Shown here one piece after another: positions 4,673 to 42,391 of a stretch of 64,000 nt of DNA (within the stretch, counting starts at the first letter, position 1; each line of letters opens with the position of its first letter). The position numbers were made by a program, and so were the translations under genes. The notes beneath the pieces are model-generated. The model ran no database searches, was not told where the DNA came from, and saw nothing but the letters and a program-made list of their open reading frames with translations. The stretch covers positions 67,661-131,660 of the forward strand of contig CAWBEA010000002.1 in NCBI GenBank assembly GCA_963787705.1, given 5' to 3'. The DNA is from Vulcanimicrobiota bacterium (GTDB taxonomy: Bacteria > Vulcanimicrobiota > Vulcanimicrobiia > Vulcanimicrobiales > Vulcanimicrobiaceae).

Positions 4673-5677
4673 GTGCACGTGGCTATAGATACAGCGGTCT
4701 CCGACCGCTTCGAACTGATTACCGTGCCTCGTGCGAGGGGCGTGCCTTCGTTTGCCGAGGACGTCGCGGCGGGCATGAGCTCGACGCCGAAGCGTTTGCC
4801 GTCGAAATATCACTACGACGACGTCGGCTCGGCGCTCTTCGACGCGATCACGCATCTTCCCGAATACTATCTGACGCGAGCGGAAACCGAGATACTCTCG
4901 GAATGGGGCTGGCAGATCGTCCGATTGCTCGACGCGCCGGTTGACTTTCTGGAACTCGGAAGTGGGAGCGCGATAAAAACCCGGCTTTTAATCGGCGAAG
5001 CGTTGCGCGTGCAAGACCGGCTGCTCTATTGCCCGATCGATATTTCCACCGAGGCCGTCTGCGCATCGTCGATGGCCCTCGTGGAGAGCTATCCGGAATT
5101 GCGCGTGCGCGCCTACGCGGGCGACTATTTCGACGTGCTCGAGTCGCAAGCGGTACTTTCGGATCATAAAATGCTCGCGATGTTCATGGGGTCGAACATC
5201 GGCAACTACGAGCCGCAGGAATCGCGCCAGCTACTGGCCTTGCTCGGCTCCGCGCTGCGACAAGGCGATGGGTTGTTGATCGGAACCGATCTCAAGAAGG
5301 ATCGCGCGACGCTCGAGCGCGCCTACGACGATCCGATCGGCGTGACGGCCGCCTTCAACCGCAACGTGCTCGTACGGATCAATCGCGAACTCGACGCCGA
5401 CTTCGATCTCAAAAAATTCCATCACATCGCGCAGTACGACGAGCGGCGTGGTTCGGTCGATTCGTTCCTCGAAGCACAAGAGCGCATGAGCGTTCGCGTA
5501 CGCGCCGCGGATCTTCGGATCAGCCTGGAAGCGGGAGAACGAATTCACACCGAATCGTCGTACAAATTTGCCGACAATGATGTGGCGCGTCTGGCCGAAG
5601 GCGCCGGTTTTACGCCGCGATCGGTCTGGCACGATGACGCGAAAAGCTTCAGCGTTCACCTCTTGGTTCGTCGATAG
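4673..5677 (+). CDS. egtD: L-histidine N-alpha-methyltransferase (EgtD family)
   Basis: Colinear with mycobacterial EgtD as I remember it: PKRLPSKYHYDDVGSALFDAITHLPEYYLTRAE, LELGSGSAIKTRLL, FMGSNIGNY, GTDLKKD...AYDD..GVTAAFNRNVL, ESSYKF. Confidence 0.85.
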   Translation: MHVAIDTAVSDRFELITVPRARGVPSFAEDVAAGMSSTPKRLPSKYHYDDVGSALFDAITHLPEYYLTRAETEILSEWGWQIVRLLDAPVDFLELGSGSAIKTRLLIGEALRVQDRLLYCPIDISTEAVCASSMALVESYPELRVRAYAGDYFDVLESQAVLSDHKMLAMFMGSNIGNYEPQESRQLLALLGSALRQGDGLLIGTDLKKDRATLERAYDDPIGVTAAFNRNVLVRINRELDADFDLKKFHHIAQYDERRGSVDSFLEAQERMSVRVRAADLRISLEAGERIHTESSYKFADNDVARLAEGAGFTPRSVWHDDAKSFSVHLLVRR

Positions 5678-13035: not shown

Positions 13036-14089
13036 CTAGTGGTAAGCAGCAACGCTGACTGCGGCAGCTGTTGGCTCGCCGTAACCAGGCAGTTCCGTTA
13101 ACAGCGCGCCACTCGGATATCTAAATACGAAGAAATCCCCGTCGTAGCCGGGGTAAGCCCTAGGTACGACAATTCGGTTTCCCTGAATCCAGAACTGACC
13201 TAATTGCCCTCCCCTTGTAACTCCGCTAAGCACCGTGTGTCCAACGGCTACCGCGTGATCGTGATGCCTCCCACGCAGCTCGAAGCGTAGAATTCTGGGG
13301 ATATGATTGCGATAGCCTACCAACGCCAGCTTGCCGTGGTTCCACTGGACACCAGCAGACGAGTCTACGACAAAAGCGTCCCCGCGGAATTCGATTTGCG
13401 AAAAGCCTTGTCGGCGCCGACGCAACTCCTCAAGCACGGTCGCGGCGCTATAGTAGTACTTCGAGCCGACTACAAAAAGATGGCCGTGGTCGTCGTAGCC
13501 GCAATAGCCAGCTTCCGGGAAGACATTGCTGTACTCAGTTGGTGTGCCCGAGCCCCGAGGGTAGACGAAAACCACGCTGGAGTTGGATCCTTGCCCGACC
13601 ACACCGGCGTAGTATCCTTGCGCGACCACCGCTAGATCGCCAGTACTCGGGTCGATCGCACACGACCGTAAATAGGAGTAAATGCTCCCCGGGTTAGGAA
13701 TTGCCCTAATCGGCTCGGTTCCGCCATGAGCGTATTCAACGACCTCAGTCTCATCGACAATATACATGTTTCCGCTGGCGTCGACGCACTCACCGAAGGG
13801 CTGATTTCCGTTTTGGAGCTCCCCAACTAGTGACAAGCCGGGGAACGAATAAACAAATACGACCCCATTGCCGCCAGAGTCTGCAAGGTATAGCAAATCC
13901 TGACCCGAGGTGCCCGATTTCATCCACGACTTGCCACGATCGGCGTGCGCTGCGAATGCGGCGGTTTGCGGCATAGCGCCCGGCGCGGCCGATCGGCGGC
14001 TGCGATCCGCCGCACCCCGCGAGCAGCGCAGCGACGGTAACGCTCAGCGCGCGGCTGCTACAGATTAGGCGTTCCACCCCTGTGCTCAT
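13036..14089 (-). pseudogene. lipoprotein paralog A of the 13-18.6 kb family, disrupted by a +1 frameshift after the signal peptide
   Basis: The signal peptide and lipobox (MSTGVERLICSSRALSVTVAALLAGCGGSQPPIG) lie in ORF 13790..14089, whose ATG overlaps the upstream stop (ATGA at 14086-14089). The body lies in ORF 13036..13974 (MPQTAAFAAHADRGKSWM...). There is one extra nt in CGGCGCGGCCGATCGG at about 13981-13996 compared with copies B and C. Confidence 0.6.
13965..14025 (-). repeat. conserved leader cassette, copy A (carries the 1-nt insertion)
   Basis: TTTGCGGCATAGCGCCCGGCGCGGCCGATCGGCGGCTGCGATCCGCCGCACCCCGCGAGC aligns with the copies at 15012, 16037 and 17026. Confidence 0.7.
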
Positions 14090-15141
14090 TTGACGATTTG
14101 CTTTAAGCTCACGGCCACGCCATAGGGTCGGTCAAGGTTCTTGTAAATTTGGGCGATGACACTTCCGCCCGCGGGGTACTTCCAGTAGGTAACGGCAGCA
14201 TAGTCATAGGTGGTCGCTCCGACGACTTGAGTTCCTTGGCTTCCGGGGTGGTTGTTATAGATAAAAACAGGGCCAAGCCCAAACTCCACGCCGCTAAGGT
14301 ACGTCGTTCCAATCCAATGGCCCAGGTCACGTCCTATCGCGACGCGATAGATTTCATTGGAATAGCTCTCAGTGTTGAGGATCCAATACTTCCCGTCCCA
14401 CGTAATTCCCTGAACGCCGTTGAAGTAGCCGTCCCAGGAAGATCCGCCCGAGATGTTGATGGTGACGAGTTGCGTACTGCCCTTGGCAAGGTACGCGAAG
14501 CCTGAACCATAGCCGCTGGAGCTTTCACCACCGTCTGTCGTTAACAGATCACCTTTGTCGTCGTAGGCGCAGCTTTCGTAGTGACCCAAAGGACCCTGGA
14601 AGATGACGGGTTTGCCTTTGGCGTGGCGATAAATCGCGAGGCTACCCTCACCGGTCCCATCACCTTGCCACCAGTTCGCGACGGCGAGATTACCGGTCTT
14701 TGTATCGACAGCACATCCGTAGGGCCAATATGGAGCGACATTGATAACTCTGATGGGACTCTTACTGCCGTGTGAGTACTCAACGACGTCGTTTGCTTCA
14801 AAATCCACAATATAGACGTCGCCAGCTCTGTCAACGCATTCACCCCTTGGCGAGATGAAGCCGGTTAAGACCCCGACGAGCTTTCGGTGCCAATACCGGT
14901 AAGTACGCACGTTGCCGCCGACCTCCTCACTCACGTACAGCAAATCGTCGCTCTTCGCTTCCGGCAGCATCCACGATCCATCGCGCGCCGCCTGCGTGGC
15001 GATCGCCGAGCTTTGCGGCATCGCGCCCGGCGCCCCGATCGGCGGCTGCGATCCCCCGCACCCTGCAAGCATTGCCGCAGCCAGAATGCCCAACGCGTAA
15101 CGCGTAGGCAGTAGTGCGTTCATTGTTCTTGCCTTTGTCAT
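14086..15141 (-). CDS. lipoprotein paralog B (beta-propeller-like, uncharacterised family)
   Basis: MTKARTMNALLPTRYALGILAAAMLAGC-GGSQPPIGAPGAMPQ. Blocks DDLLYV, GDVYIVD, VVEYSHGSKSPI, CAVDTKTGNLAV, WDGKYW, WKYPAGG, GVAVSL. ATGA overlaps at both ends. Confidence 0.75.
   Translation of the reverse strand: MTKARTMNALLPTRYALGILAAAMLAGCGGSQPPIGAPGAMPQSSAIATQAARDGSWMLPEAKSDDLLYVSEEVGGNVRTYRYWHRKLVGVLTGFISPRGECVDRAGDVYIVDFEANDVVEYSHGSKSPIRVINVAPYWPYGCAVDTKTGNLAVANWWQGDGTGEGSLAIYRHAKGKPVIFQGPLGHYESCAYDDKGDLLTTDGGESSSGYGSGFAYLAKGSTQLVTINISGGSSWDGYFNGVQGITWDGKYWILNTESYSNEIYRVAIGRDLGHWIGTTYLSGVEFGLGPVFIYNNHPGSQGTQVVGATTYDYAAVTYWKYPAGGSVIAQIYKNLDRPYGVAVSLKQIVK
15012..15070 (-). repeat. conserved leader cassette, copy B
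   Basis: TTTGCGGCATCGCGCCCGGCGCCCCGATCGGCGGCTGCGATCCCCCGCACCCTGCAAGC. Confidence 0.7.
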
Positions 15142-16148
15142 CGATGGATGCGCGTACCGGATGGGGCGAGGGAAACGGTGACTGCGCCAATTGTGGCGTG
15201 CGGTAACAAATCCCTAGACGGAATCCTCTTGGTCACCCTTCCACCCGTCGGATAAGGCCAAATGCCAATCGTTCTTTGGTGGCGATTGTTGCTAACGACA
15301 AGCAGGTCCCCCGCGAGCCAAGGCTGGGCCCCTCGTTCGACCGTTCCTTCGAGTTGTACGATGCCGACAATTGTTGCGGTTGAGCCGCTTACTTCGATTT
15401 GGGAAAGCGTATTTCGGCCTGAACCGAGAAAAGCGTCGAGAATGAGGTACTGACCGTCCCATTGCAGGGAGCCTGCAGGATAGTCTTCACGGGGCAGTGA
15501 GAGATTCTCAAGGTTACCGGAACCTTCAGGTAACTCGGCCAGCTGAATCGAGCCCGAAGAGTTCTCGCCATCCACATAGAGATTGCCCGCGCTGTCGTAG
15601 ACGCAAGCTTTTATGGTTTGAATCTGAGGGTCTTGTAGCTTTTCAGGATTGTGTGAGCCTTCTGTAAAAATCGCAACGTAATCGTAAAAATTATCGAATA
15701 GCACAGTAGCAGCAAGATCATCCGTTATTGGGTCTACGGAGCAGGAAATAGCAAAGCCATCATTGTCATCTAACGAGAACGTTTTAATGGGTGTCTTTCG
15801 GCCATGTGCAAACTCCAGGATGTCCGCCCCGCTAACTATGTATACGTTGCCGTCGGGGTCCGAACACGACGCGCTCGGATAGACAACAATGTTTAGCATG
15901 CCGACCGGCTTTCCGCCCGGAAAGCTAAACACGCGAACGGTGTGCCCTCCGTCATTCACATACAGCAAGTCTTCACTCTTCGCTTCCGGCAGCATCCACG
16001 AGCGGCCGCGCTCGGCGTGCGTTGAGGTCGCAGAGGTTTGCGGCATCGCGCCCGGCGCGCCGATCGGCGGCTGCGATCCGCCGCAGGCCGCTAGTAACGC
16101 TGTCGCCACGCAACTTGTTAGCGCGTTGCGTTTACTGCGCGTGGTCAT
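15138..16148 (-). CDS. lipoprotein paralog C (beta-propeller-like, uncharacterised family)
   Basis: The ATG at 16148-16146 overlaps the upstream stop (ATGA). MTTRSKRNALTSCVATALLAAC-GGSQPPIGAPGAMPQ. Blocks EDLLYV, GNVYIV, ILEFAHGRKTPI, CSVDPITDDLA, WDGQYL, WPYPTGG, AVTVSLAP. Confidence 0.75.
   Translation of the reverse strand: MTTRSKRNALTSCVATALLAACGGSQPPIGAPGAMPQTSATSTHAERGRSWMLPEAKSEDLLYVNDGGHTVRVFSFPGGKPVGMLNIVVYPSASCSDPDGNVYIVSGADILEFAHGRKTPIKTFSLDDNDGFAISCSVDPITDDLAATVLFDNFYDYVAIFTEGSHNPEKLQDPQIQTIKACVYDSAGNLYVDGENSSGSIQLAELPEGSGNLENLSLPREDYPAGSLQWDGQYLILDAFLGSGRNTLSQIEVSGSTATIVGIVQLEGTVERGAQPWLAGDLLVVSNNRHQRTIGIWPYPTGGRVTKRIPSRDLLPHATIGAVTVSLAPSGTRIHR
16037..16095 (-). repeat. conserved leader cassette, copy C
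   Basis: TTTGCGGCATCGCGCCCGGCGCGCCGATCGGCGGCTGCGATCCGCCGCAGGCCGCTAGT. It has 2 mismatches to copy B over the 50-nt core. Confidence 0.7.
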
Positions 16149-17200
16149 TGCCAGCCAAAAACCACAAGGCCGTCCCCTGCGGCGTTCTTCCATCCAGGCC
16201 ACGTACGAAACGTAAATGCGCCTGGCTCGACATATGACGATCCGCCCCCTCCACCGCCGCCGGGGGACCCGTTTATGCCTCCTTCACCCCCACCGCCGCC
16301 GCCACCACCGTAGTAACCGCCGCCTCCGCCGCCGCCCGCGCCGCCGTCGCCGCCGCTCGTCTCTCCAAATCCGGCCTCGCCGCCGTTTCCTCCGACGCCG
16401 CGTCCTCCGGATTTACCGCGCTGGCCGCGGTCGCAATCGTAACAGCTTTTTGGTGCACGCTCGCCGCCCGAGCCGCCCCGACTCTGCGTGCCGCCCCCAC
16501 CACCACCACCCGCACCGCCGCCGTAGCCGCCCGCGCTCCCAGAGCCGCCTACAGAACCTCCGCCTCGACCACCAGCGCCACCACCGTTTTCATAACCACC
16601 TTGTCCTCCTCCGCCGCCTGCAACCAGGACGCGATTGCTCAGCCTGGCAGAGTCTTGCCGTACGTCGGACGCACCGCCGCCGCCAAAGCCACCCGCACAA
16701 CATTGTGCGGGATCACCTCCGCCGTTGAAGCCGCCATATCGGGCCCCGCTGTATTCGATCCCGGCCCCCCCTACGTAGACGTACAGCCTTTCACCGGGAG
16801 TGACTGGAATTTCAGCGTAAACGCGGGCACCGTGGCCGCTGCGAGTGTCGTAATACGTCGGTTCACCACCACCAGCGCCGCGCGCGACGATAGTGAGCTT
16901 CGTAACGCCCGCCGGCACTTTGAATGTTTGCTTCGATCCCGTGAACTTAAACGTCTCATGAAACGGCAGTCCGGAGCCGTCGGGCCTATCAGACGTGTGA
17001 CCGAGATGCGCCGCGACAGCACGGCTTTGCGGCATCGTGCCTGGTGACCCGATCGGCGGCTGCAATCCGCCGCACCCTGCGAGCAATATCACAGCCATGC
17101 ATCTTGCAAGTGTGTAGCGTCCAATAACTAAGCTCTTAATCTGCTTGGCTCCTCGAAAACGGCTCACAGTGAATCGAACCTGGGTCACTCTAATCAACAC
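16145..17200 (-). CDS. glycine-rich-domain lipoprotein (bacterial homolog of the ALK/LTK-type Gly-rich domain)
   Basis: Same leader (ILLAGC-GGLQPPIGSPGTMPQ), then FKFTGSKQTFKVPAGVTKLTIVARGAGGG...GERLYVYVGGAG and long Gly tracts (GGGGGGG, YYGGGGGGGGEGG), ending SSYVEPGAFTF. The start is ambiguous (GTG 17200, TTG 17197, GTG 17188 or GTG 17167). Confidence 0.75.
   Translation of the reverse strand: MLIRVTQVRFTVSRFRGAKQIKSLVIGRYTLARCMAVILLAGCGGLQPPIGSPGTMPQSRAVAAHLGHTSDRPDGSGLPFHETFKFTGSKQTFKVPAGVTKLTIVARGAGGGEPTYYDTRSGHGARVYAEIPVTPGERLYVYVGGAGIEYSGARYGGFNGGGDPAQCCAGGFGGGGASDVRQDSARLSNRVLVAGGGGGQGGYENGGGAGGRGGGSVGGSGSAGGYGGGAGGGGGGGTQSRGGSGGERAPKSCYDCDRGQRGKSGGRGVGGNGGEAGFGETSGGDGGAGGGGGGGYYGGGGGGGGEGGINGSPGGGGGGGSSYVEPGAFTFRTWPGWKNAAGDGLVVFGWQ
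17026..17085 (-). repeat. conserved leader cassette, copy D
   Basis: TTTGCGGCATCGTGCCTGGTGACCCGATCGGCGGCTGCAATCCGCCGCACCCTGCGAGC. Confidence 0.7.
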
Positions 17201-17654
17201 TCTTCGACAGTTCTAAAACGATCTTCCATTCGTGCGGCATCACCGGCTGCACGGAGAGCCGTTGCCCGCGCCGCAGCAACGCCATGCCAACCAGCCGTGG
17301 TTCGGCGCGCATGCGCGCAAGCGATACCGGATTCTCAAACGCTTCGACGTATGCAACGTCGACCATGAACCAAATTGGTTTGTCGGGCCTCGCGCGTCCG
17401 TCGAAGTACTCCCCCCCGCGCTCGAACTGAGTGAAATCGGGATAGGCCGCCTTGACGACCTTGCAAACGCCGACGGCCGCCGGCTCTGTAATGCTGGAGT
17501 GGTAGAAGAGCCCGAGGTCGCCGAGCCGCATCTCCATCATGTTGTTTCGCGCCTGGAAGTTGCGCACGCCGGTCCACGGGGTCGTGCCCTCTTCGCCTAG
17601 CCGCTCGAATGAATAGGCGCTTGGCTCGGTCTTCATGAGCCAGTAGCGAGGCAC
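17190..17654 (-). CDS. EVE (PUA-like) domain protein
   Basis: MPRYWLMKTEPSAYSFERL...WTGVRNFQARNNMMEMRLGDLGLFYHS...YPD is a canonical stand-alone EVE domain. The GTG start shares nt 17654 with the upstream TAG. Confidence 0.85.
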   Translation of the reverse strand: MPRYWLMKTEPSAYSFERLGEEGTTPWTGVRNFQARNNMMEMRLGDLGLFYHSSITEPAAVGVCKVVKAAYPDFTQFERGGEYFDGRARPDKPIWFMVDVAYVEAFENPVSLARMRAEPRLVGMALLRRGQRLSVQPVMPHEWKIVLELSKSVD

Positions 17655-18625
17655 TACGGAGCCAGGCTAACGGTCACCGCCTGGCTCGGATCCGGGGGAT
17701 GCAAAACCTTGAAGGCTTCCCCGCCGGCGGGATACTTCCAAAAACTAAGCGAGTTGCCGCGGGTTGCCACGAGCGTGTTGCCCTCGATCCACGACTGCCC
17801 CGCATTCTTCTGGCGCCAGTCGACGAAACGGCTGACGCCGGCGATCGTTCCGGTTGAGCCGGAAACTTGCACGCGGAAGTAGTGCACGTTAACGTTTTCG
17901 CCATCGTGCTTCGTCGCCGCGTAGGACTGCAGGGCAAAGTACTTGCCGTCCCACTGAGCGTGGGCGACGTTCCCGATCGTCTCGTTTAGCTTGATCTTTT
18001 CAAGCTCTTGTTTGCCTTTCGGAAGCAGCGCGGCCACATTTCCGCCGCTGATAACGAAAAGGTTGCCGCTCGCATCGTAGGCCGGTTGTGGGTCGGCTCC
18101 CAGTTCTTCGCTGTGATACAGCTTTGCCTCGCCGCTGCCGCCGGTGTAAATTTCGACTAACGGAGCGAAGTTATGAACGTCGTAGCTGGTAACCGCAAGG
18201 TTTCCCGTCGTGGGATCGCTCGAGCAGTTTACCGGAATCTCATGGGCAGGAACGTCGAGGGTGCTGATGGGCGATTTCGTTCCATGGGCGTATTCGTAGA
18301 CATATCCGGTGAGCGCGCCCGACTTAGCTTGAACGACTGCCGTGACGAAGACGTCGCCTTTGGCATCCGAGCACATCGCCTGAATCAAGAACGGCGTCCT
18401 GAACGTACCTTCAAAGGCGCCGCCCGGATAGGTAAAAACGATGGCCCTGTGTTTGGCGCCGGCGTAGATCAGGTCGGTCTGCGATCCTGCGCGGCGCGCG
18501 AGAAGGGCTTTGTCTAGCGGTGCAACCGGGCTCGTGCTGGGCGCAAGCCCCGCGCAACCGGCAAGCGTGACCGTAAGCACGCACAGGCACGCTGCGTAGC
18601 GCAACGCGTGGATCGGCCTAAACAT
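17654..18625 (-). CDS. lipoprotein paralog E (same body family, different leader)
   Basis: The ATG at 18625-18623 gives MFRPIHALRYAACLCVLTVTLAGC. Blocks TDLIYAG, GDVFVT, YEYAHGTKSPI, CSSDPTTGNLAV, WDGKYF, WKYPAGG, AVTVSLAP. The upstream part of ORF 17654..18913 is antisense to the cupin gene. Confidence 0.7.
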   Translation of the reverse strand: MFRPIHALRYAACLCVLTVTLAGCAGLAPSTSPVAPLDKALLARRAGSQTDLIYAGAKHRAIVFTYPGGAFEGTFRTPFLIQAMCSDAKGDVFVTAVVQAKSGALTGYVYEYAHGTKSPISTLDVPAHEIPVNCSSDPTTGNLAVTSYDVHNFAPLVEIYTGGSGEAKLYHSEELGADPQPAYDASGNLFVISGGNVAALLPKGKQELEKIKLNETIGNVAHAQWDGKYFALQSYAATKHDGENVNVHYFRVQVSGSTGTIAGVSRFVDWRQKNAGQSWIEGNTLVATRGNSLSFWKYPAGGEAFKVLHPPDPSQAVTVSLAP

Positions 18626-40559: not shown

Positions 40560-40632
40560 TTCCGTCCGGCGCGCCCATCTCTTCCAAAAGCGCCCGGCTG
40601 CCTGGGAAGAACCGCGTTTCAGGCGTATAGAG

Positions 40633-40722
40633 TCCGTGCGCGGGAGCTAAATTAGGCTGAGAGGGCGGCCCCGAGCCGCCGACCGCACGTAACCTGATCC
40701 GGATAATGCCGGCGTAGGGAGG
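40633..40722 (+). ncRNA. TPP (THI-box) riboswitch
   Basis: CGGGAGC ... CTGAGA at 40657-40662 ... AACCTGATCCGGATAATGCCGGCGTAGGGA at 40691-40720, directly upstream of thiC. The 3' GGGAGG doubles as the SD, 8 nt before the ATG. Confidence 0.85.
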
Positions 40723-40726
40723 ATAA

Positions 40727-42391
<1,665 letters not shown>

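Follow-up and report, generated by a model that had tools for sequence, protein, structure and literature searches.

Lipoprotein signal peptides cleaved by signal peptidase II (SPase II) are composed of a basic n-region, a hydrophobic h-region and, at the end of the latter, an L-A-G-C lipobox of the pattern [LVI][ASTVI][GAS]C, followed by a Gly/Ser-rich mature start. In the known post-lipobox sorting signals, the information lies directly after the lipidated Cys and is common to proteins with different bodies. The lipoprotein export signal of Bacteroidota consists of acidic residues within positions +2 to +5 (K-(D/E)2 or Q-A-(D/E)2), the Lol-avoidance signal is an Asp at +2, and the tethers of spirochaete (Borrelia) lipoproteins are disordered and function independently of a specific sequence. 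Conserved 5' ends are found in variable surface lipoprotein families, as in the Mycoplasma vsa vrs box, vsp/vlp, and the upstream homology sequence of Borrelia hermsii. In the Mycoplasma vsa type, a single expression site holds the promoter, the silent genes have none, the recombination sites are inverted, and a site-specific recombinase is linked. Here, these systems were compared with a 48-nucleotide (nt) cassette that begins at the lipobox Cys codon of four adjacent genes, A to D, in a 64,000-nt stretch of Vulcanimicrobiota DNA (contig CAWBEA010000002.1, positions 67,661–131,660; the window).

The observation from which the analysis started, a near-identical segment in four genes of the window, was real and belongs to a much larger phenomenon. 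One cassette consensus was common to at least 50 species, was joined to at least ten unrelated passenger folds, and was constrained at synonymous sites. Judged from its sequence features, the cassette with its signal peptide is very probably a portable lipoprotein export and anchor module.

The cassette in the four-gene operon

The cassette extended from the lipobox Cys codon to Gln+15 and encoded Cys followed by GGSQPPIGAPGAMPQ. When the copies were aligned, a sharp block was formed between the Cys codon and Gln+15, and the n- and h-regions 5' of the block were diverged. Coordinates are positions in the window, and genes A–E, taken from the open reading frame (ORF) list and the raw sequence, are all on the minus strand.

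Gene A, 13036..14089, minus strand: predicted lipoprotein, propeller-like body; frameshift within the cassette in the window assembly
Gene B, 14086..15141, minus strand: predicted lipoprotein of 351 amino acids (aa), all-beta body, weak NHL repeat match
Gene C, 15138..16148, minus strand: predicted lipoprotein paralogue; likely start ATG 16146–16148 (MTTRSKRNAL...), overlapping the stop of D
Gene D, 16145..17200, minus strand: predicted glycine-rich lipoprotein, ALK_LTK_GRD-like; start uncertain
Gene E, 17654..18625, minus strand: upstream paralogue; lipobox present, tether diverged (CAGLAPSTSPV)
Cassette copy A, 13966..14014, minus strand: Cys codon 14012–14014, then tether codons; 49 nt owing to one extra C
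Cassette copy B, 15013..15060, minus strand: encodes CGGSQPPIGAPGAMPQ
Cassette copy C, 16038..16085, minus strand: encodes CGGSQPPIGAPGAMPQ
Cassette copy D, 17027..17074, minus strand: encodes CGGLQPPIGSPGTMPQ

The 23-mer GGCGGATCGCAGCCGCCGATCGG matched the window at 13989–14011 and 16060–16082 without mismatch, and at 15035–15057 and 17049–17071 with one mismatch each. No fifth match was found in the window at three or fewer mismatches, and 100 shuffles gave none. The cassettes of B and C differed at 2 of 48 positions. Stop and start codons overlapped as ATGA at each junction, D/C (16145–16148), C/B (15138–15141) and B/A (14086–14089), and D, C, B and A therefore form one translationally coupled operon. 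The four copies were direct repeats within it, each gene having its own start and signal peptide. A lipobox LAGC or LAAC was located 15–30 residues past the start, with Lys or Arg upstream, in B, C, D and the family consensus MKSLDFGRYALSSCVAAAMLAGC. With its lipobox, h-region and basic n-region, the leader has the sequence features of a lipoprotein signal peptide, and cleavage by SPase II is predicted.

The original prediction had described the bodies of A, B and C as distantly related, that of D as an unrelated glycine-rich domain, and gene E and the other lipoproteins of the window as lacking the tether, and alignment and Pfam searches agreed with it on each point. Full-length body identities were 33% (A/B), 31% (A/C) and 35% (B/C), and the body of E was 26–33% identical to those of A, B and C. 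Gene D aligned with B and C over only ~40–48 leader residues, and its body matched Pfam ALK_LTK_GRD (E=3e-6). The tether was absent from E and from all six further predicted lipoproteins of the window. Single-sequence structure prediction of B gave no usable model (predicted local distance difference test score, 33).

The extra C in copy A (GGC-C-GCG) split gene A into ORFs 13790–14089 and 13036–13974. At the same locus in a sister assembly (L198; loci are numbered with L), otherwise identical, the extra C was absent and gene A was an intact frame of 350 aa. The extra C was also present in one public assembly (loci compared, L198:3040-3200 and L199:3040-3200), and it is explained either by genuine polymorphism or by an error in the long-read consensus. 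A similar shift was present at this position in a metagenomic ORF, P0098. In the part of gene D at 17075–17200, ATT was observed where the family normally has the start ATG (CAGATTAAGAGC). The start of D is uncertain because of this change; it may be the ATT or an upstream in-frame GTG.

When the cassette was compared with ordinary SPase II lipoproteins, whose tethers are not conserved, its 15 post-Cys residues were near-invariant across unrelated proteins and their codons were fixed. Residues +2 to +5 were Gly-Gly-Ser-Gln in 96–100% of copies, with Gly at +2 in 99%. The acidic residues of the Bacteroidota signal at +2 to +5 and the Asp of the Lol-avoidance signal at +2 were thus both absent. 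The precedents in Bacteroidota and spirochaetes that the original prediction had invoked found no sequence match. The Pro/Gly-rich composition fits a Borrelia tether, but the invariant sequence does not. The cassette is also much longer than the known post-lipobox signals, sequence-specific and conserved at the DNA level. It is regarded as a new, lineage-specific variant of the lipoprotein N-terminal signal that lacks the sequence marks of the Bacteroidota and Lol-avoidance signals.

The variable surface lipoprotein families share with this family nucleotide-identical coding near the leader, different bodies, and a junction where the constant part ends. In contrast to them, there was no single expression site and there were no promoterless silent genes; the copies were direct repeats in operons, each gene with its own start and signal peptide; the bodies were globular and enzyme-like or propellers; and the consensus was common to 50 species. 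No recombinase was among the recurrent neighbours of the loci, and the window was not searched exhaustively for recombinases. The choice-of-anchor families (GloVer, TIGR03803) are passenger types with alternative anchors. GloVer proteins here carry the leader, whereas in the present family the anchor is constant, the passengers vary, and no curated model covers the anchor.

Spread and synonymous-site constraint

A DNA scan was carried out with one genome per species and a pattern degenerate at every synonymous site; the codon counts given below are unbiased because the pattern left these sites free. At least 117 loci from at least 49 metagenome-assembled genomes (MAGs) carried the motif. The MAG labels among the matches listed were Eremiobacterota/Vulcanimicrobiota, mostly Cybelea or Baltobacteraceae, with the sole exception of one contig labelled Candidatus Acidoferrum (L111, DATMKR010000029.1). 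One protein, P0047, was labelled Candidatus Binatus. Either these two carriers come from mis-binned contigs, or the motif has on rare occasions been transferred out of Eremiobacterota. In the listed loci and the window together, the peptide motif occurred 228 times and the DNA core, with up to four mismatches, 295 times. A 43-position leader profile, run against 1.84 billion representatives of 50%-identity clusters, matched 1854 clusters at E<=1e-3 and 560 at a cut-off of E<=1e-10. When the 47-aa leader was used as a query, every protein returned carried LAGCGGSQPPIGAPGAM; all were short ORFs, and the named ones were Candidatus Cybelea. The restriction to short ORFs is probably an artefact of the choice of candidates by a word index.

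The passengers included propellers (NHL/SGL, lactonase, ScyD/E-like and Sortilin-like) and non-propeller bodies (GloVer repeats (TIGR03803), two kinds of glycine-rich domain, a phosphoesterase (PF04185) and a glycosyl hydrolase), and several bodies had no domain match. In Pfam and NCBIfam, no model matched the 65-aa consensus leader or residues 1–45 of B, C and D. The literature search found GGSQPPIG in no paper and nothing relevant tying Eremiobacterota to lipoproteins.

The original prediction had also proposed that the conservation exceeds what a signal peptide needs, and the synonymous sites bore this out. Fourfold third-position identity between copies was 0.87–0.89 over codons 0–7 and 0.70 over codons 8–12, compared with 0.40–0.46 in the adjacent h-region and 0.30–0.33 in the bodies. 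Synonymous-codon entropy was 0.2–0.8 bits at codons 0–7 and 0.7–1.05 bits at codons 8–15, compared with 1.2–1.8 bits at most of the Ala, Leu and Gly codons in the h-region next to them. GGA encoded Gly+2 in 94% of copies but made up 16% of the Gly codons of the other window genes, and the neighbouring Gly codon was GGC. Gln+15 was CAA in 81% (43% in other window genes), and Gln+4 was CAG in 97%. The codons CCG (96% against 60%) and GCG (83–88% against 45%) were likewise enriched in the cassette. General codon bias was rejected as an explanation because the rare GGA and CAA sit at single positions beside GGC and CAG.

Core third-position differences were 0.16–0.21 irrespective of the identity of the 42-nt flank, even where flanks were more than 80% identical. 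Copies differed by 4.29 per 39 nt within a genome and by 4.36 between genomes (permutation p=0.4). The 16 genomes with at least five copies had essentially one consensus and similar variant frequencies; the lone marginal difference was at Gly+1 (uncorrected p=0.03). The equality within and between genomes and the flank-independent core exclude recent duplication. The same two results argue against neutral concerted evolution within genomes, which should let the consensus of each species drift, and gene conversion in the simple form suggested by the original prediction is not borne out. The pattern resembles a per-site mutation-selection equilibrium, in which each copy is weakly pulled towards one nucleotide sequence.

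Putative promoter, orphan modules and casposon carriage

The sequence GAAC-N16-18-CGTY, a promoter consensus of the extracytoplasmic function (ECF) sigma type, was present in 54 of 219 copies at 95–135 nt upstream of the Cys codon; a control window gave 4 of 219. Roughly one copy in four would accordingly have a candidate promoter at a fixed distance, as in L017, L052 and L093; a GGAG-type ribosome site follows, and the 5' untranslated region (UTR) is common to many copies. The putative promoter suggests that part of the family is a regulon of the envelope-stress type. The internal genes of the window had no such sequence, as expected inside an operon.

About 61 of the 207 copies with a complete downstream frame encoded fewer than 150 aa. 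Roughly half of these were frameshifted genes, and some of the frameshifts may be long-read errors. Orphan modules, in which putative promoter, leader and tether are followed by no body for 1.3 kb, accounted for ~32 of the 207. They ended a few codons past MPQ (L002, L036, L040, L044, L062, L078, L092, L096 and others). In L062 and L096, a downstream ORF, conserved in two genomes, began with an ATG that directly abutted the stop (taaATG), and L063 and L078 had a downstream gene in common. In 28 of the 32 orphans, similarity to every full-length member ended within nt 24–54 after the Cys codon. The orphan breakpoints had been considered as evidence for a site-specific joint, and this was weakened by the full-length genes, of which about half lose similarity at the same edge; the edge therefore marks the end of the constant module and gives no proof of a joining mechanism. 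Solo cassettes with no signal peptide upstream were found at L008:6216-6263, L047:3018-3065 and in L104 near 5200–5240. The part common to L047 and L104, from two genomes, was the cassette and ~10 nt before it (TTCCAGTC).

When the neighbours of the family genes were clustered, a Cas1 homologue (PF01867, E=2e-36; TIGR00287) and a large protein were found in 41 of 117 loci. No dedicated recombinase, peptidase or transferase recurred in this clustering. The large protein, divergent in sequence, contained all motifs of a family-B DNA polymerase (PolB) by eye; it had no profile or PDB match, and its PolB identity rests on the reading of these motifs. These genes and small conserved ORFs define a casposon family, present in L016+L072 (CAWHZL010000017.1), L093+L113, L122, L184, L139, L183 and ~40 other loci. 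As in known casposons, the elements have Cas1, a PolB-like protein, terminal inverted repeats and site-specific tandem insertion. The terminal repeats were ~35 nt long and began with GGGATAGGAG; in distant elements they were clean and ~15 kb apart. More than 30 Eremiobacterota loci contained these repeat tips, which lay outside the lipoprotein genes. The tips were often back to back with 14–15 nt between them, as in tandem copies, and adjoined the 3' end of a gene with a SEC-C motif. Metagenome contigs contained 441 Cas1 relatives. The literature search found nothing connecting casposons with SecA.

Leader-bearing genes, both full-length and orphan, were frequent cargo; in at least eight elements they lay between the core genes and the ends:

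Elements with leader-gene cargo: L017, L036, L044, L067, L078, L092, L120, L122

The cassette is thus casposon cargo and not transposition machinery. The window itself contained no casposon genes and no repeat tips. Transposase genes resembling those of IS110, IS3 and IS21 were observed among the lipoprotein arrays of L069, L021 and L016+L072 (10.7–12.8 kb and 17.9–20.3 kb).

Selection, exchange and other explanations

The module would consist of a type II signal peptide, the lipobox Cys and the almost invariant 15-residue Pro/Gly-rich tether, and it would be used by a lipoprotein superfamily that is very large, evolves fast and belongs to one Eremiobacterota lineage (named genomes, Cybelea and Baltobacteraceae). 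It would export and lipid-anchor its passenger and hold it on a short, stiff spacer. A peptide signal alone is insufficient, because the third codon positions are frozen, the rare GGA included. With 24–45 nt of tether DNA held to one consensus at synonymous sites in all copies and species, a second role would be expected, either as nucleic acid or through specific codons. Selection on the nucleotides is somewhat favoured over exchange as the source of the constraint, and the chances that the portable module and such selection hold together appear evenly balanced. Our best guess for the second role is a common cis-site in messenger RNA (mRNA) or DNA for a conserved trans-acting factor controlling the whole family; that it is specifically a regulator site is rather less likely than not. 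A possible partner of such a site could be a small RNA complementary to GGAUCGCAGCCGCCGAUCGG.

In a wider form of this proposal, the peptide would serve as a lineage-specific anchor or sorting tag and the same bases as a cis-site for a regulator, a small RNA or a joining reaction. Several hundred unrelated lipoprotein genes per lineage would then be under one control or assembly system and be spread by casposons. Both statements are speculative and, on balance, doubtful. The original prediction offered gene conversion or a specific post-lipobox signal. The second of these stays plausible, and neither branch anticipated a constraint that looks like per-site nucleotide selection, or casposon carriage.

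Several results weigh against a nucleic-acid role under selection. The data come wholly from MAGs. Core third positions were ~2.3 times more variable than first and second positions, which indicates that selection acts at the protein level too. Together with the horizontal vehicles, this excess keeps alive an explanation by exchange with shorter coalescence. Furthermore, 13 of the 15 consensus codons were the preferred codons of the genome, and part of the signal could therefore be local codon optimisation. No antisense partner was found in the window or in ~1.6 Mb of loci with G-U pairs allowed, and Rfam 15 gave no family at the cassette or the conserved 5' UTR. The consensus leader RNA folded no better than shuffles (z=+0.84), the candidate hairpin showed no covariation, and the two inverted repeats of the cassette had no excess of compensatory changes. 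The last results bear most directly on a structured mRNA element with the hairpin CGGCGG-AUCGCAG-CCGCCG. A 6-base-pair GC stem could form, and C-to-T changes, the commonest at third positions, would keep G-U pairs; however, compensatory pairs were at chance level, the loop bases were conserved as much as the stem, and the complementarity follows automatically from coding Gly-Gly...Pro-Pro. Such an element is very unlikely.

The main rival to selection is a homology block, in which short-tract gene conversion and horizontal exchange, for example by casposons, keep the cassette uniform. It would be the sole stretch alike enough for recombination between diverged paralogues, and the bodies would be swapped at its 3' edge. 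This proposal is considered unlikely, but several observations fit it. Paralogues with unrelated bodies lose similarity at the 3' edge, where most orphan modules also break; core variation is decoupled from flank divergence; family genes ride mobile casposons; and the codon-position ratio is like that of ordinary, merely younger coding sequence. However, similarity within genomes was not in excess and no genome had a consensus of its own, whereas neutral concerted evolution should drift. In addition, no recombinase recurs beside the arrays, the window copies are direct repeats in one operon with their own starts and signal peptides, and the orphan breakpoints, shared with about half of the full-length genes, are not distinctive. 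Less likely still is a function of the peptide alone with local codon selection, in which a recognition or spacer peptide has a Pro/Gly stretch that needs certain codons for smooth or paced translation. The near-invariance of the peptide and the preferred consensus codons fit this explanation. The adjacent h-region uses non-preferred codons, as is reported for signal peptides, and this fits as well. It does not account for the single fixed positions of GGA (16% genome-wide) and CAA among cassette Gly and Gln codons that are otherwise GGC and CAG, and codon bias in the bodies of these genes does not exceed background (0.30–0.33).

Two further explanations can practically be discarded. A simple, recent tandem duplication of the 5' end of one gene, local to the operon, would agree with four adjacent paralogues in one orientation. 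It was refuted by the spread scan, the codon usage and the fourfold identity: the same cassette is found on many bodies in at least 49 other genomes, and the signal-peptide codons just upstream are saturated at synonymous sites. The cassette was also pursued as a mobile-element terminus, either the terminal inverted repeat of a casposon or a casposase site, owing to its outward-facing modules. Inverted repeats of 160 nt and 372 nt, formed by such modules, flank Cas1/PolB sets and end at the cassette, and 11 modules lie 150–190 nt downstream of Cas1 3' ends. This idea was rejected after the true ends and the cargo position were found. The true repeats lie further out with the lipoprotein genes inside them, the close relatives of Cas1 are not followed by a leader module, the SEC-C-motif gene supplies the integration flank with its 3' end, and the window has neither element genes nor repeats.

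If the tether is a recognised tag, it would label the entire anchored exoproteome of a phylum that is uncultured and widespread in soil and peat, and would point to an unknown step of sorting, processing or glycosylation. If the DNA or RNA carries a signal too, the cassette would offer a clear example from nature of a short element with dual coding, shared by hundreds of genes. The motif C-GGSQPPIG is a simple sequence handle for finding these proteins, and the casposon link provides a concrete way for a secretion module to pass from genome to genome together with its passengers.

The core contained two GATC sites 12 nt apart, and a role in connection with Dam was considered. The pair is uninformative because GATC is 2.4-fold over-represented genome-wide. 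Away from the cassette and the 5' UTR, Rfam 15 matched only a transfer RNA and a thiamine pyrophosphate riboswitch, the latter at 40630–40737 on the plus strand of the window with a score at the gathering threshold (58.4 bits). Across the whole window, GATC was over-represented 2.4-fold and CGATCG 5.6-fold, and CTAG was strongly depleted, at 0.18 times expectation.

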